A stretch of 64,000 bases of DNA from Candidatus Marinacidobacterium sp. (lineage in GTDB: Bacteria; Acidobacteriota; Vicinamibacteria; Marinacidobacterales; Marinacidobacteraceae). The DNA is taken from the NCBI GenBank assembly GCA_965204755.1, contig OZ242011.1:3552001-3616000 (forward strand), given 5' to 3'. The notes below the pieces were generated by a model, which saw only the letters and a list, made by a program, of their open reading frames with translations, was not told the origin of the DNA and searched no databases. Shown piece by piece: positions 30,436 through 35,448 of this stretch. Within the stretch, counting starts at the first letter, position 1. Each line of letters opens with the position of its first letter. A program made the position numbers and the translations under genes.

Positions 30436-32076
30436 TCAGGGGCGGAGGGGGCGGCCGGCCAAGGCGTTCGTGGCGGCGCCGCCGCGGATGGCGAAGACGC
30501 CGTTCACGAGGACCTGGACGGTTCCTTCGGAGTAACTGCGCGGGTTCTCGAAGGTGGCGGTGTCGCGCAGGCGGTCCCGGTCGAGGACGACCAGGTCGGC
30601 CTTCATTCCTTCGGCGAGGTAGCCGCGGTCGGTCAATCCCAGGAAGTCGGCGGCGAGGCCGGTCATGCTGCGGATGGCGAAGGGCAGGGAAATGATTCCC
30701 TCGTCGAGGGCGTAGCGGCGCAGTTTGCGGGTGAACGCGCCGGAGACCCGGGGGTGGCCGACCTCGGCTTCCGGAGGGATGTCGCGGCCGTCGGTGCAGG
30801 TCATCATCCAATCCTGCTGCGCCAGGAACCGGGTGTTCTCCTCGTCGTAGAGCCGGAGGTTCATCACCGAAGCGTTTCCGCCGCGCAGGACCTCCCGCGC
30901 CGCCGCCGGGGGATCGAGTCCGAGTTCGTCGGCGACTTCGGCGAGCGTCTTGCCGTTCAGTTCCGGGCGCGCCGAGGAGAAGAGGATGGCGTCGGCGCCG
31001 CCCCGGATAGCCAGCATCTCGGCGGTGGCTTCGCCGATGACCGCGGCGGTGTTCGGGTCGTCGAACCGGGCGAGCATCGCCTCCCGCCCGCCGGCGGCGG
31101 CCCAGCGCGGGACCGTGTAGGCCCGGAGGCTGGACTGGGTGGCGGTATAGACATGCTGGGCGCCGGCGACTTCGACGCCGCGCTCGCGGGCCTCTTCGAT
31201 GAGTCGGGCGCCCTCCGGGGCTCGCCCGTAGTTCCGGACGCCCTGCGCGTTGAAGTGGCTGAAGATCACCCGCAGGCCGGATTCCTCGCCGATGCGGATC
31301 GCTTCTTCGATGGACGCGAGATAGCCGAACGAGGGATAGGCCGCTCCGAGGTCCCGGTCGTGGGTGTCGTAGATGGTTCCGCCGGCGTCGGCCGCCGCCC
31401 GGCCGAGCGCGATGACCTCCTCGGTCGTCGCGTAAGTTCCGGGGACATAGAAGAGCCCGGTCGAGAACCCGAACGCGCCTTCCTCGACGCCTCGGCGCAC
31501 GAGGGCCTCCATCTCCCCGAGTTCCTCCCCGGTGGGCGCGCGGTCCTCTTCGCCCATCACCCGGCGGCGAACCGCTCCGTGGCCCACATAGGTCAGGGCG
31601 TTCACGCCGATTCCGCGCGCTTCCCAACCGGCGAGCGTCGCCGCGACTTCCGGGGAACCCCCGCCGTCCACGCCGAGCACCACGGTGGTGATGCCCTGGT
31701 GGAGGAAGGGCAGCGCCTCCTTGGCCCAGTCGTCCCCGACCTGCGAATGGGAGTGCATGTCGATGAATCCGGGCGCGACGAGCAACCCGGAGACATCCAG
31801 CGTCTCCTCGCCGGTGATCCCGGCGGCATCGGCGTCCCCGACGAAGACGATCTCGTCCCCGGAGACCCCGATGTCCGCGCGCACCGGTTCGTTCCCGGAA
31901 CCATCCAACACGGTTCCGCCGGCGAGCAGCAGTTCGACCGACTGCCCGCCGCAACCGGAAGCGGCGGCCAGCGCGAGCGCGGCGCCGGCGACGAAAAGGG
32001 AATGCGGCAGCGTCCCGAACCGCCGGGCCGCCGCCCGCGCGGCGGAGCGGGCGCGGCCCTCGGACGAAGACCTCAC
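30436..32076 (-). CDS. N-acyl-D-amino-acid deacylase family amidohydrolase (lipoprotein)
   Basis: APGFIDMHSH, GFSTGLFY.PG, THDRD, ISH-like FSH, CTDG, HPR..G.F and ADLVVLD motifs; lipobox ASGC. Start position uncertain. Confidence 0.88.
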   Translation of the reverse strand: MRSSSEGRARSAARAAARRFGTLPHSLFVAGAALALAAASGCGGQSVELLLAGGTVLDGSGNEPVRADIGVSGDEIVFVGDADAAGITGEETLDVSGLLVAPGFIDMHSHSQVGDDWAKEALPFLHQGITTVVLGVDGGGSPEVAATLAGWEARGIGVNALTYVGHGAVRRRVMGEEDRAPTGEELGEMEALVRRGVEEGAFGFSTGLFYVPGTYATTEEVIALGRAAADAGGTIYDTHDRDLGAAYPSFGYLASIEEAIRIGEESGLRVIFSHFNAQGVRNYGRAPEGARLIEEARERGVEVAGAQHVYTATQSSLRAYTVPRWAAAGGREAMLARFDDPNTAAVIGEATAEMLAIRGGADAILFSSARPELNGKTLAEVADELGLDPPAAAREVLRGGNASVMNLRLYDEENTRFLAQQDWMMTCTDGRDIPPEAEVGHPRVSGAFTRKLRRYALDEGIISLPFAIRSMTGLAADFLGLTDRGYLAEGMKADLVVLDRDRLRDTATFENPRSYSEGTVQVLVNGVFAIRGGAATNALAGRPLRP

Positions 32077-32104
32077 GCCGCGCGCTGCGACTCGGCGCGC
32101 AGGG

Positions 32105-32533
32105 TCAGTCCTCTTCGGCGCCCGGATAGACCCGTTCTCCCTCGTAGTCCCTCAGACCGCAAAAACCGGTGACTTCGAATCCGTTGGACTGGAGCATCTC
32201 CGCGGCACGCGCGGCTCTTCCTCCGCCCTGTCAAGCGGTGAGGATGGGAACGCCGGTCGGCAGTTCCCCCATCCGGGCCTCCAGTTCGTCGATCGGGATG
32301 TGGACGAACCCGTCGAGGGTTCCGTGTTCGGCGAGTTCTTCGGGGGTCCTCACATCGAGGAGCAGCGCGCCGCCGGCGAGCGCGGCGTCGATGTCCGCCG
32401 CTTCGACGCGCGGAGCGGGCGCCGGTTCCGGCTCTGCCGCGGGCTCGCTCGACGACGACTCTTCGCCACCGCCCCCGCCGCAGGCGAGGGAGACGCCGAC
32501 GAGGCCGGCGGCGAGGGGAAGAAGACTGCGCAT
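32105..32533 (-). CDS. Selenocysteine-containing rhodanese, lipoprotein (UGA at 32231-32233 read as Sec)
   Basis: MRSLLPLAAGLVGVSLAC lipobox, then LLDVR..E...G...HIP.DEL...PILTA-UGA-QGGGRAARAAEMLQSNGFEVTGFCGLRDY..., with the true stop at 32105-32107. The UGA aligns to the catalytic Cys of the rhodanese CxxGxR loop. Confidence 0.85.
32200..32215 (-). promoter_or_regulatory. Putative bacterial SECIS hairpin
   Basis: GCCGCGCGUGCCGCGG at +16..+31 after the UGA: stem CCGCG/CGCGG, loop CGUGC containing GU. Confidence 0.7.
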
Positions 32534-32597
32534 GGGGAAACCCTCCCGGGTGAGACTCGACTCGTGTTTCGGCCGAACGGCGTCGCGGCGCCGCGGG

Positions 32598-32942
32598 TTA
32601 TTCCGGCAGCGGCCGGTACTCGCGGCGGCCGCGGTAACTCTTGAGGCCGCAGAAACCGCGCACCTCGAAACCGGCCCGCTCCAGGATCGCCGCGGCACGC
32701 GCGGCCCGGGGGCCGACCATTCAAGTGGTCAGGATCGGGCGGTCCCGCGGGATCTCGTCGGCGCGCTCGGTCAACTCGTCGAGACCGATGTGGAGCGCGC
32801 CCGGGATCGTTCCCGATTCGGCGAGTTCCACCGCCTGCCGCACATCCAGCAGGACGACTTCGCCGCCCGCCAACTGGCCGTCTATCTCGTCGGCCGGAAC
32901 GAAGGGGGCGCGGGTTCCGAACATGCGGCCGACGATCGCCAT
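32598..32942 (-). CDS. Selenocysteine-containing rhodanese, no signal peptide (UGA at 32721-32723 read as Sec)
   Basis: MAIVGRMFG...VLLDVRQAVE...GTIPGALHIGLDEL...RDRPILTT-UGA-MVGPRAARAAAILERAGFEVRGFCGLKSY..., with the true stop TAA at 32598-32600. Alternative start at 32924. Confidence 0.85.
32690..32705 (-). promoter_or_regulatory. Putative bacterial SECIS hairpin
   Basis: The same 16-mer GCCGCGCGUGCCGCGG at the same +16..+31 offset from the UGA as in the paralog. Confidence 0.7.
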
Positions 32943-32997
32943 CGCGCGCCGCCCGTCCGGTCTCTCGCGCCCGCCCTCTCTCTCGTCCGGTTCCGCC

Positions 32998-34173
32998 CTA
33001 GGCGGCCATCTTCTGCGCGGAGTCGAGCACCGCCGCGAACGCCTTGGCGGCGCGCTGCATCTCGTCCATCGTCCCGATGGAGATGCGGCAACGCGTCCAC
33101 AGTGGCGGGAACGGCCGTCCCACGCGGACGCCTTCGGCGGCGCAGGCCGACTGGAACTGCTCCACCGGCATCCCCACATCCGCGAAGATGAAGTTCGTCT
33201 GCGCGTCGGTGGCCGAGTAGCCGCGGTCGCGGAAGAACTTCAGGATGAAGTCGCGCGCCTCGGCGTTCCGCTTCTTCTCGTTGGGGAGGAAGTCCGGGTC
33301 CTTCCGGTCGCGGTCGAGCGCCGCGTTGGCCGCCACCAGCGAGAGCGTGCTCACCGTGTTCCCCATGTGGAACTCGCGCAGGTGGGCGATGGTGTCCTCG
33401 TGGGCGATGGCGTAGCCGACGCGGAGGCCGGCCATGCCGTAGGCCTTCGAGAAGGTGCGCGCCACGATCACCCGCGGGTTGTCGAGCGCCAGCGGGATCA
33501 TCGTCTCGTGGCCGGGCGTCGTCACATAGTCGATGTACGCCTCGTCCACGAGGATGCGGAGGTCCTTCTCCGTATCGAGCGCCCGGTTCAGGAAGTCCCG
33601 CCCATCGGTCGGGTCCACCAGCGTCGCCACCGGGTTGTTCGGGTTGCAGAAGAAGAGCATCCCGCTGCCCTTGACTGCGTGGAGCGTCTGGTCGAGGTCC
33701 ATCTTGAGTTCGGAAGTCAGCGGAACCGCCTTCGTCCGATACCCCATGAGCGCGGCGTAGCCGAAGCACTCTTCGTAGGTGGGGAGGGAGCCCACCAGCG
33801 CCTTCTCGGCGCTTGCGTACTGGTGGGTGACATTCACCAGGATCTGCGTCGAGCCGGCGCCGATGAGGACATTGCCCGGCTTCACGCCCCACTTCTCGGC
33901 GATGGCTTCCTGCATCGGGCCGACGAAGCGGAACGGGTACCGGCCGGCGATCGTCCCCTCGGGGCCGATGACGGCGTCCACGGCGTCCATCACCGCTTCA
34001 CCGGGGCCGAGCGAGTTCTCGTTGTTGGCGAGGTTGATCGCGTCTTCGGGCGCGATGCCCATCTCGGCGGCGAAAGCGACCTGCTCGCGCAGGCGGGAGC
34101 GGACCAGGGTCGCCGCGTAGAGGCCGGCGGCGCCGGCGGAAGCGCGGTTCAGGAAACTGCGGCGGGAAAACAT
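32998..34173 (-). CDS. Tat-exported PLP-dependent aminotransferase class I/II (HisC-like)
   Basis: SRRSFL twin-arginine motif; NENSLGP, CNPNNP, DEAY and RTFSKAYGMAGLRVGY motifs. Confidence 0.9.
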   Translation of the reverse strand: MFSRRSFLNRASAGAAGLYAATLVRSRLREQVAFAAEMGIAPEDAINLANNENSLGPGEAVMDAVDAVIGPEGTIAGRYPFRFVGPMQEAIAEKWGVKPGNVLIGAGSTQILVNVTHQYASAEKALVGSLPTYEECFGYAALMGYRTKAVPLTSELKMDLDQTLHAVKGSGMLFFCNPNNPVATLVDPTDGRDFLNRALDTEKDLRILVDEAYIDYVTTPGHETMIPLALDNPRVIVARTFSKAYGMAGLRVGYAIAHEDTIAHLREFHMGNTVSTLSLVAANAALDRDRKDPDFLPNEKKRNAEARDFILKFFRDRGYSATDAQTNFIFADVGMPVEQFQSACAAEGVRVGRPFPPLWTRCRISIGTMDEMQRAAKAFAAVLDSAQKMAA

Positions 34174-34251: not shown

Positions 34252-35448
34252 TTACTGCTGCTGGTTGTCGGTGGTCGCCAGCCCGAGCACCTCCGCGAAG
34301 ACCGCGGTCGCGCGCTGCATCTCCTCGAGCGTGCCGATGGAGATCCGGGCGTGGCTGTTCTCGTAGGGCGGGAAGTCCCGGCCCACCATGATGCCCTTCT
34401 CGGCGCAGGCCTCGCGGAAGGACTTGGCGCTGCGGCCGATGTCCACGAAGATGAAGTTCGTCTGGCTGGGCACCGGGTCGAGGCCGTTGCTCGAGAAGAA
34501 GTCCAGCGTGAACTGCCGGGCGGCGTCGTTCCGCTTCACTTCGTTCCGGATGTAGTCCGGATCCTCGAGCGAGCCCATCGCCGCGGCGATGGAGAGGATC
34601 GAGGTCCCGAAGGTGAGCGCCAGCGGCGCGAGCCGGGCGATCGTGTCCTTCTGGCCGTAGGCGTAACCGACCCTGAGACCGGCCATGCCGTACGCCTTCG
34701 AGAAGGTGCGGCCCACGAACACATCGCGGTACTTCATGGCGAGGCCGGCGCCGGTCTCGAACGACTTGTCGGTCACATAGTCGTAGTAGGCCTCGTCGAG
34801 CAGGATCGCCGTGTAGGGCGACTCCTTCTTCACGAAGTCCACGAAGTCGGTCACATCGGCGAGGCTGTGGATGGTGCCGGTGGGGTTGTTCGGGTTGCAG
34901 AGGAAGACGAGCCCGGCGCCCATCGCGGCCCCGGCCATCTTGTCCAGGTCGAGGCCCAAACTCCCGGTGTTCGGGACCGCCTTGACCGGCGCGCCGAAGT
35001 ACTCGGCGGCGCGCTTCGGGCTCTCGAAGGAGCAGGTGGCGGTGACCAGCGGGCGGCCCTTGCCGGTGTACACCCGCACGGCGTTCCGGAGGATCTCGGA
35101 GGAGCCGGGGGCGAGCACCACATTCTCGGCGCCGCCGCCGTACATCTCCCCGAGGCGCTTCCGCAGGTCGTTCCCGCTGATGCGGGCGTTCATCGGGTAG
35201 CGCATGATGGAGCCGTACTCGCCCCGGAGCGCCGCCACCGCCGCCGGGCCGGGGCCGAGCGGGTTCTCGTTGCTGCTGATGCGCACCTCGTCCGCCTCGG
35301 GGGGCGGCACGAACACCGGGGCCTCGCGGAAGCCGTTCGCGGCCTCCCAGGCTTCCCGTCCGCGGGCGCCGATGGCGTGGAGCGCCGCCGGGGAAACGGC
35401 GGGGGCGCCGGCGGCCAGACTCAGAAAGCGGCGGCGGTTCGATTTCAT
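34252..35448 (-). CDS. Tat-exported PLP-dependent aminotransferase class I/II (HisC-like), paralog
   Basis: NRRRFL twin-arginine motif; SNENPLGP, CNPNNPTG, DEAY and RTFSKAYGMAGLRVGY motifs. Confidence 0.9.
   Translation of the reverse strand: MKSNRRRFLSLAAGAPAVSPAALHAIGARGREAWEAANGFREAPVFVPPPEADEVRISSNENPLGPGPAAVAALRGEYGSIMRYPMNARISGNDLRKRLGEMYGGGAENVVLAPGSSEILRNAVRVYTGKGRPLVTATCSFESPKRAAEYFGAPVKAVPNTGSLGLDLDKMAGAAMGAGLVFLCNPNNPTGTIHSLADVTDFVDFVKKESPYTAILLDEAYYDYVTDKSFETGAGLAMKYRDVFVGRTFSKAYGMAGLRVGYAYGQKDTIARLAPLALTFGTSILSIAAAMGSLEDPDYIRNEVKRNDAARQFTLDFFSSNGLDPVPSQTNFIFVDIGRSAKSFREACAEKGIMVGRDFPPYENSHARISIGTLEEMQRATAVFAEVLGLATTDNQQQ

Follow-up and report, generated by a model that had tools for sequence, protein, structure and literature searches.

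Here, we describe two short genes, rhd1 and rhd2, which follow one another in the same orientation on the minus strand of a 64,000-nucleotide stretch of the genome of Candidatus Marinacidobacterium sp. (assembly GCA_965204755.1, contig OZ242011.1, positions 3,552,001 to 3,616,000; hereafter the window, to which coordinates refer unless a contig is named), and which very probably encode a pair of rhodaneses with selenocysteine (Sec, U) at the catalytic position. The gene rhd1 (32598..32942, minus strand) is predicted to encode a cytoplasmic-type single-domain rhodanese selenoprotein of 114 residues, with U at position 74 and a TAA stop at 32598-32600. The gene rhd2 (32105..32533, minus strand) is predicted to encode an exported, lipoprotein-type single-domain rhodanese selenoprotein of 142 residues, with U at position 101 and a TGA stop at 32105-32107. 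Genetic code table 11 splits both genes in two at the internal TGA, which occupies 32721..32723 in rhd1 and 32231..32233 in rhd2. When TGA is translated as U (for rhd2, over 32533-32108), the contexts are ...DRPILTT-U-MVGPRAARAAAILERAGFEVRGFCGLKSYRGRREYRPLPE in rhd1 (that is, ...RPILTT-U-MVGPRAARAA...) and ...GVPILTA-U-QGGGRAARAAEMLQSNGFEVTGFCGLRDYEGERVYPGAEED in rhd2 (that is, ...VPILTA-U-QGGGRAARAA...). The frames then run on for 40 codons in rhd1 and 41 in rhd2, the numbers given in an earlier reading of this DNA made from its letters alone (the original prediction). The Rhodanese domain PF00581 spans the UGA in both translations, at residues 17-93 of rhd1 (46.8 bits) and residues 47-119 of rhd2 (37.1 bits), against a cut-off of 22.2. 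Both results agree with the two main claims of that prediction, namely that each open reading frame (ORF) is interrupted by an in-frame UGA exactly where the catalytic Cys belongs, and that the codons beyond it complete the rhodanese fold.

The UGA is conserved far beyond the window. In a six-frame search of 60 relatives with rhd1 as the query (P0001), both paralogues were found in 26 of 27 same-family genomes, the exception (G020) being 89% complete, and all matches with E <= 9.2e-23, many of them from two other families of the order, contain exactly one in-frame TGA. The U stands at the identical column in 27 rhd1-type and 30 rhd2-type genes; the same is true of 21 additional rhd2-type genes, taken from larger genomes within the order, and of further copies. 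We also sampled 300 genomes evenly across the phylum; with our own genome counted, 61 of 301 gave a match at E <= 1e-10. The best 31 rows of that sample (E <= 4.4e-16) each carry one TGA, and stop-free rows start only at E = 3.2e-15; one of the 31 comes from an unpublished genome (G107), on which no result depends. In total, we gathered 112 gene copies from relatives that share the TGA, the codons after it and the hairpin described below. The TGA is invariant in 27 of 27 rhd1-type and 30 of 30 rhd2-type orthologues, and the conservation of all three features, on which the original prediction in part depended, extends to the 112 copies.

The post-UGA frame of rhd1 and rhd2 evolves as coding sequence. 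Across 36 post-UGA codons, variable sites at the first, second and third codon positions number 14/13/34 in rhd1 and 15/10/31 in rhd2, and the 58 codons upstream show the same third-position excess (36/27/58 and 30/31/55, respectively). A reassigned genetic code was considered and is excluded, since TGA ends 702 of the 957 long ORFs in the source genome, where it is thus an ordinary stop, and since rhd2 and many of its orthologues themselves terminate with TGA at their conserved C-terminus.

The structural evidence points in the same direction. We modelled the rhd2 domain, read through the UGA, with AlphaFold from an alignment of 89 sequences, and the model (mean predicted local distance difference test score, pLDDT, 88.3; predicted TM-score, pTM, 0.77) has the whole rhodanese fold. 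In the numbering of the model, the central strand 57-61 closes with U61, the place of the catalytic residue in the alpha/beta rhodanese fold, and both helix 65-76 and strand 81-86 are built from residues after the UGA, so that a product terminated at the UGA would be left without the active-site loop and two core elements. The catalytic column (C61) is invariant in the 89-sequence alignment (A4). Matches of the model in the PDB are all rhodanese domains, the best being 3icr_B (CoADR-RHD; E 1.1e-7, TMq 0.79), and phmmer alignments with 3icr and 4ocg place the U on the catalytic Cys of the C-Q-x-G-x-R loop of these solved domains, the active-site loop here being U-x4-R. A six-residue active-site loop is typical of sulfurtransferase rather than phosphatase rhodaneses.

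The original prediction also proposed a search for homologues with Cys at the UGA column, and these exist. The five longer database matches of the two genes (P0005, P0011, P0028, P0159 and P0174) are full-length protein records in which the U column holds Cys and the C-terminus likewise reads FCGL...YP. The Cys form can be illustrated by ILTA-C-QGGGRAARAA, in which the RAARAA peptide is also present. In addition, one locus (L127) has a TGC codon at the UGA column in genomic DNA.

A genome that decodes UGA as Sec is expected to encode the corresponding machinery, and the search for selA, selB, selC and selD returned all four above curated cut-offs: selA with 474.6 bits, selB with 286 bits (together with its C-terminal part), selD with 245.8 bits and tRNA-Sec with 71.8 bits, for which ARAGORN gives the anticodon TCA. 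A formate dehydrogenase alpha subunit (TIGR01553) had no match in the genome, whose completeness is 89%. We also scanned the genome for in-frame TGA codons with coding flanks and a hairpin, which gave 71 candidates genome-wide. In four of those outside the window (L233-L236, all on contig G000:C1), a Pfam domain extends across the in-frame UGA: an AhpC/TSA candidate with the motif W-U-PFC (TGA at 3796851, plus strand); an OsmC-like candidate with GG-U-MVGT (TGA at 3798001, plus strand), about 1.1 kb from the former; a second AhpC/TSA candidate with DWTGG-U (TGA at 159537, minus strand); and a candidate for a PCYCGC-motif protein (PF13798) with T-U-STC (TGA at 342354, plus strand). These four candidate genes suggest that this organism makes use of the Sec trait. 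As a separate observation, selA and selD lie on the same strand within about 7 kb (G000:C1:1382122-1388866), and selB (G000:C1:2782439-2784358) and tRNA-Sec are located elsewhere.

Downstream of each UGA, within the codons for the RAARAA helix, the two genes carry a hairpin that resembles a selenocysteine insertion sequence (SECIS). In rhd1, it occupies 32689..32705 on the minus strand (+16..+32 after the UGA, within the AARAAA codons) and consists of a GCCGCG/CGCGGC stem with a CGUGC loop; in rhd2, it occupies 32200..32215 on the minus strand (+16..+31) with a (G)CCGCG/CGCGG stem and the same loop. The 16-mer GCCGCGCGTGCCGCGG is common to both genes at +16..+31 (32690-32705 and 32200-32215), and the CCGCG/CGCGG stem with its CGUGC loop is present in the minimum-energy structures of both 60-nt post-UGA stretches. 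This bears out the shared 16-mer and its fold with a GU-containing loop as originally described. The description of two genes sharing one SECIS holds in the sense that both have the same hairpin; the element exists as two copies, one per gene, and not as a single element. The loop is CGUGC in most rows, CGGGC in 7 of the 27 rhd1-type genes (the loop U replaced by G and the loop G kept) and GGUGC in L063.

Published criteria for bacterial SECIS elements comprise a loop of 3-9 nt, a stem of 4-16 bp, a G in the first two loop positions that is usually followed by G or U, a spacing of 16-37 nt between the UGA and the loop, and a minimum free energy (MFE) of -7.5 kcal/mol or lower (PMC13188914). 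The hairpin has a 5-nt loop, a 5-6 bp stem, a G at loop position 2 followed by U or G, and 21 nt between the UGA and the loop (columns 7-27 of alignments A2 and A3); the consensus fold has -7.64 kcal/mol and the two 60-nt folds -28.4 and -20.5. It thus falls within the published range for every one of these properties.

The spacer between the UGA and the hairpin of rhd2 (32216-32230, minus strand) holds the rare codons GGA GGA AGA. In the source genome, AGA accounts for 0.4% of the codons for Arg and GGA for 7.7% of those for Gly, and the AGA is kept in 27 of 30 rhd2 orthologues. This hints at a nucleotide-level constraint that may act on the spacer too.

Taken together, the conserved UGA, the coding sequence downstream of it, the hairpin, the Cys homologues, the Sec machinery and the fold all support the proposal that both genes encode selenoenzymes. 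We consider it very probable that rhd1 and rhd2 are a Sec-decoded rhodanese pair, and hold the specific chemistry discussed below with less confidence.

Several observations weigh against this interpretation. The selenium in the two proteins is predicted from sequence and a structural model rather than from protein-level observation. The folding energies of the 60-nt stretches are no better than those of shuffled sequences (z -0.10 and -0.74), the stem being short and its context GC-rich; over the 60-nt and 90-nt post-UGA stretches together (z -0.10, -0.74, -0.37 and +0.16), folding energy was rejected as evidence, being uninformative at 70% GC. The compensatory changes come from a handful of related lineages, and kinship inflates shuffle tests. 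GCC and GCG account for 97% of Ala codons, so that part of the identity of the 16-mer is to be expected. In one copy (L105), a G faces an A in the stem. The exact element is not universal either, since the divergent subfamilies L110-L117, in which the UGA and the FC[GA][LI] cysteine are retained, have other hairpins at a similar distance: one is GGCGCGC/GCGCGCY closed by a G[GU]C triloop, the other GCUCC/GGAGC, whose 8-nt loop starts with CG[UG]GC. When genome contigs were scanned as DNA with P0174 and metagenome contigs with P0011, the nearest relatives of these Cys forms were Sec forms, not Cys forms (L119 at 77%, L120 at 85% and L199 at 72%), and the only TGC form was the more distant L127. 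Finally, no neighbouring gene is conserved, and the synteny of the window extends only within the genus.

Of three alternatives, the least improbable is that both genes encode selenoproteins but that SelB binds at another site than the 16-mer, which would then be invariant because of the RAARAA peptide together with codon bias or gene conversion. In its favour, RAARAA is kept in the Cys forms too, GCC and GCG dominate the Ala codons, and the energy z-scores are unremarkable. However, the Arg codon in the centre of the element is CGT, which, as the original prediction noted, is uncommon (2.6% of Arg codons in the 957 long ORFs of the source genome). Two independent draws of codons for A-A-R-A-A at genome usage would match with P ~0.02. 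In rhd2, the codons GCC, GCG, CGT, GCC and GCG (+6..+10) are invariant in 30 of 30 orthologues and adjacent four-fold sites vary freely; in rhd1, the stem varies among orthologues with its pairing retained. Pairs were counted in alignment A3 after removing exact duplicates, which reduced the 112 copies to 91 distinct rows, with the divergent L110-L117, which failed the extraction pattern and have other hairpins, left out. Over these rows, the CGT column (column 30) is at least 90% conserved, the rare codon itself standing in more than 90% of them, and 454 of the 455 cells of the 5-bp core pair. The pair 24-36 is CG in 82 rows, UA in 4, UG in 4 and a G-A mismatch in 1 (L105), and the pair 27-33 is GC in 86, CG in 4 and AU in 1. 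The covariation score is 0.076 compared with 0.031 in shuffles, a value reached by none of 500 shuffles and above that of every slid register, and 13 of the 14 changed synonymous stem cells are compensatory or wobble. Moreover, gene conversion cannot account for invariance across families at about 50% protein identity, and the consensus fold shows no alternative conserved structure. We therefore regard a SelB site elsewhere as improbable.

Less probable again is a read-through of the UGA that involves no selenium, in which Trp, Cys or Arg would come from a near-cognate tRNA and the hairpin would be a generic read-through stimulator. The identity of the inserted residue is indeed deduced from sequence, and downstream RNA structures can stimulate stop-codon read-through in other systems. 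Against this, the genome retains the full Sec pathway and holds candidates for other classical Sec families (UxxC, TxxU and UxxT), the UGA falls precisely at the catalytic Cys, for which Cys homologues exist, and the hairpin fits the bacterial SECIS model in its spacing and in its loop G.

The public records raise the last alternative. Among the best 41 matches of rhd1 in a large protein database, 38 are 70-77 residues long, and among the 120 matches listed for rhd2, 118 are 87-111 residues long, which are the lengths of gene calls ending at the UGA. They are labelled 'rhodanese-like domain-containing protein' or 'hypothetical protein' and come from metagenome-assembled genomes of Acidobacteria, and the short rhd2 fragments are without any Pfam domain assignment. 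That the UGAs are true stops, leaving truncated rhodanese fragments of 73 and 100 residues or pseudogenes, would agree with these records and with TGA being the commonest stop in the source genome, but it is the least probable of all, because the database truncations are gene-caller output and not observed proteins, 36 post-UGA codons evolve as coding sequence and stay in frame in more than 100 copies across the phylum, and the fragment would miss the active-site loop, a helix and a core strand.

Taking rhd1 and rhd2 as a Sec-decoded pair, we propose that both are full-length single-domain rhodaneses in which selenocysteine would replace the catalytic cysteine. SelB, carrying Sec-tRNA(Sec), would most likely bind the small GC-rich mRNA hairpin built from the codons of the RAARAA helix, with its 5-6 bp stem and a CGUGC loop that begins 21 nt after the UGA. 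Sec would thereby be brought to the UGA, and translation would run on for another 40 or 41 codons, from which the active-site loop, a helix and the last beta-strand would be formed. As to function, the assignment comes from homology: because the rhodanese matches are to persulfide enzymes and the U lies on their catalytic Cys, the two proteins would be expected to act as carriers of sulfane sulfur (or selenium), the sulfane atom being held on the Sec as a selenopersulfide.

A second cysteine may take part in this chemistry. The Cys of the GFCGL motif, 24 residues after the U (Cys125 of rhd2, codon 32159..32161; Cys98 of rhd1, codon 32649..32651; both minus strand), corresponds in rhd2 to model residue 85 and sits in the last strand (81-86). 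In rhodaneses, the last strand adjoins the active-site strand in the sheet. If this sheet order holds here, a Se-S bond between the U and the GFCGL Cys would be plausible. The original prediction suggested this Cys as a resolving residue. The suggestion holds for the exported type, in which the Cys is kept in 83 of 83 distinct copies and could resolve the selenopersulfide or form a selenenylsulfide, making it a candidate partner of the Sec in rhd2. It does not hold in general for rhd1, since Ser stands at this position in 21 of the 27 rhd1-type orthologues, so that the Cys is not an obligatory resolving residue there.

The two proteins probably act in different compartments. The N-terminus of rhd2 reads MRSLLPLAAGLVGVSLAC-GGGGG with a putative VSLA-C lipobox, and a lipoprotein signal peptide (MRSLLPLAAGLVGVSLA, followed by the lipobox C) is predicted at 32480..32533 (minus strand); a GGAGG motif that resembles a Shine-Dalgarno sequence lies at 32542..32546 (minus strand), 8 nt upstream of the rhd2 ATG. 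By a crude regular expression, 57 of 82 distinct rhd2-type N-termini are lipobox-like, 17 have a hydrophobic signal-like start and 8 have neither, some of these being cut by locus ends. None of the 27 rhd1-type N-termini is lipobox-like by the same crude measure, and 23 have neither a lipobox-like motif nor a signal-like start. The N-terminal sequences thus fit the proposal of one cytoplasmic protein and one exported lipoprotein: rhd2 would be exported and probably lipid-anchored in the periplasm, and rhd1 would be its paralogue in the cytoplasm, having originated in this family of Vicinamibacterales-like Acidobacteriota.

Rhodanese selenoproteins have been recognised before, as the original prediction stated, and they are found in selenoproteome catalogues (PMC13188914, PMC9312934, PMC1088965). 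The analysis of the Sargasso Sea lists rhodanese-related sulfurtransferases among its selenoprotein families (PMC1088965), and the study of the Olavius symbionts reported 8 Sec rhodanese genes but no homologue with Cys (PMC1976440), in line with the predominance of Sec seen here. Of two reviews, one distinguishes 'COG0607 form 1' and 'form 2 (CxU)' (PMC9312934), and the other, from 2026, five forms, two of them with UxxG (PMC13188914). These two are 'form 2', a rhodanese-related sulfurtransferase (COG0607/PspE form 1, MBM9537886.1), and 'form 4', of the COG2897 type and first seen in the Sargasso Sea (PMC13188914, PMC9312934, PMC1088965). MBM9537886.1 and MCY3690685.1 stand as representative records of the UxxG forms. 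Like rhd1 and rhd2, the catalogued UxxG forms have a PF00581 domain with Sec at the catalytic position followed by xxG (here U-MVG and U-QGG), and like them they are described as predicted by bioinformatics only. The catalogue passages on the UxxG forms make no mention of a tandem pair of a cytoplasmic protein and a lipoprotein, of an invariant CGUGC hairpin or of the FCGL cysteine. Judged by the UxxG motif and the single, PspE-sized domain alone, rhd1 and rhd2 most likely belong with 'form 2' (COG0607 form 1) rather than with form 4. We also compared them with NF041203 (rhodanese_LYCAU, 'form 3', CxU), which is likewise a family of small rhodanese selenoproteins. Membership is rejected, as rhd1 reaches 25.1 bits where the cut-off is 115 and rhd2 is not listed; the motif of that family is C-x-U, whereas rhd1 and rhd2 read TT-U and TA-U, with Sec at the Cys position and no Cys two residues earlier.

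Two further comparisons can be made with known systems. The best matches by fold and sequence are persulfide-handling enzymes, namely CoADR-RHD (3icr), NADH-dependent persulfide reductase (3nta and 3nt6), CoA-persulfide reductase (8a56) and a persulfide dioxygenase-rhodanese fusion (5ve3), which share the C/U-Q-x-G-x-R loop with an aligned catalytic residue. These enzymes use Cys and are fused to a flavoprotein or dioxygenase partner, whereas rhd1 and rhd2 are stand-alone, have Sec by prediction and lack a conserved partner gene. Similarly, the hairpin resembles the bacterial SECIS model, of which fdhF of Escherichia coli is the studied example, in being a stem-loop just 3' of the UGA, within the coding region, with a G and then U or G near the start of a small loop. 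It differs from that model in its very short, all-GC stem of 5-6 bp, in a CGUGC loop kept phylum-wide and in its position within conserved Ala/Arg helix codons.

A second family of candidate Sec-rhodaneses was seen in the relatives (L076 and L078-L082), with the context …VVY-U-AVGGRSRAAAQLL… and a long C-terminal domain. Its hairpin, GCGCAGC/GCUGCGC with a CGGGCC loop, lies at a similar distance from the UGA. No member of this second family was found in the genome that contains the window.

The surroundings of the pair differ from genome to genome. In the window, two class I/II aminotransferase genes (32998-34173 and 34252-35448) flank the pair on one side and an amidohydrolase gene (30436-32076) on the other, all on the same strand. 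The genes next to it in six relatives encode L28, LexA, PIN, FGE-sulfatase, GGDEF-EAL, glyoxalase, GH43 and M28 proteins, and L096 and L098 alone have a class V aminotransferase gene directly upstream. What is conserved is the rhd pair itself, and the neighbours give no clue to function. A scan of 31900-33200 found no promoter-like site and two terminator-like sites, one of them on the gene strand about 80 nt past rhd2, to which we give no weight. Both aminotransferase paralogues of the window begin with twin-arginine-like sequences (MFSRRSFLNRASAGAAG... and MKSNRRRFLSLAAGAP...), which is unusual for aminotransferases that depend on pyridoxal phosphate.

Some rhd2-type genes appear to be mobile. 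A unit of ~0.7-1.0 kb with an rhd2-type Sec-rhodanese gene is repeated seven times in one 10.2-Mb genome, and loci with this unit were seen in G045, G030, G039, G042 and G043 (L060-L062, L065-L073 and L227-L232). Six copies compared as DNA, from three genomes and two families, are 96-99.9% identical, and the protein also occurs in two further genomes, compared as protein only. One copy is surrounded by a mosaic of 65-240-nt repeats at 59% GC, with a HigB toxin gene, a Mutator transposase fragment, a type I restriction fragment and AAA_5 and EAD1 domains. The unit looks like mobile or cassette-borne cargo. It is tempting to speculate that a near-obligate Sec clade of exported PspE-type rhodaneses, with its own invariant mini-SECIS in the RAARAA codons, moves between Vicinamibacteria as a cassette of ~0.7-1 kb, and that its cytoplasmic duplicate in the family of the window has mostly lost the partner Cys. 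We consider this broader scenario doubtful; if it were true, the exported clade and the cytoplasmic duplicate could together relay selenium or sulfur between two compartments, across the inner membrane.

Predictions of rhodanese selenoproteins date back to 2004-2005, and current catalogues include them, so the biology of rhd1 and rhd2 would be of an expected type. Because Sec-rhodanese forms with UxxG are already catalogued, the pair belongs to a known kind, and since the close public protein records of both genes stop at the UGA, the main value of the finding lies in the correction of annotation: a widespread selenoprotein of the Acidobacteriota is at present invisible there. The rhodanese hairpin, as an unusually clean, minimal and well-sampled SECIS candidate, would be suited to tests of SelB specificity in this phylum. 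Finally, Sec forms outnumber Cys forms among these genes, and this dominance suggests that selenium may offer a real catalytic advantage in this clade of rhodaneses.

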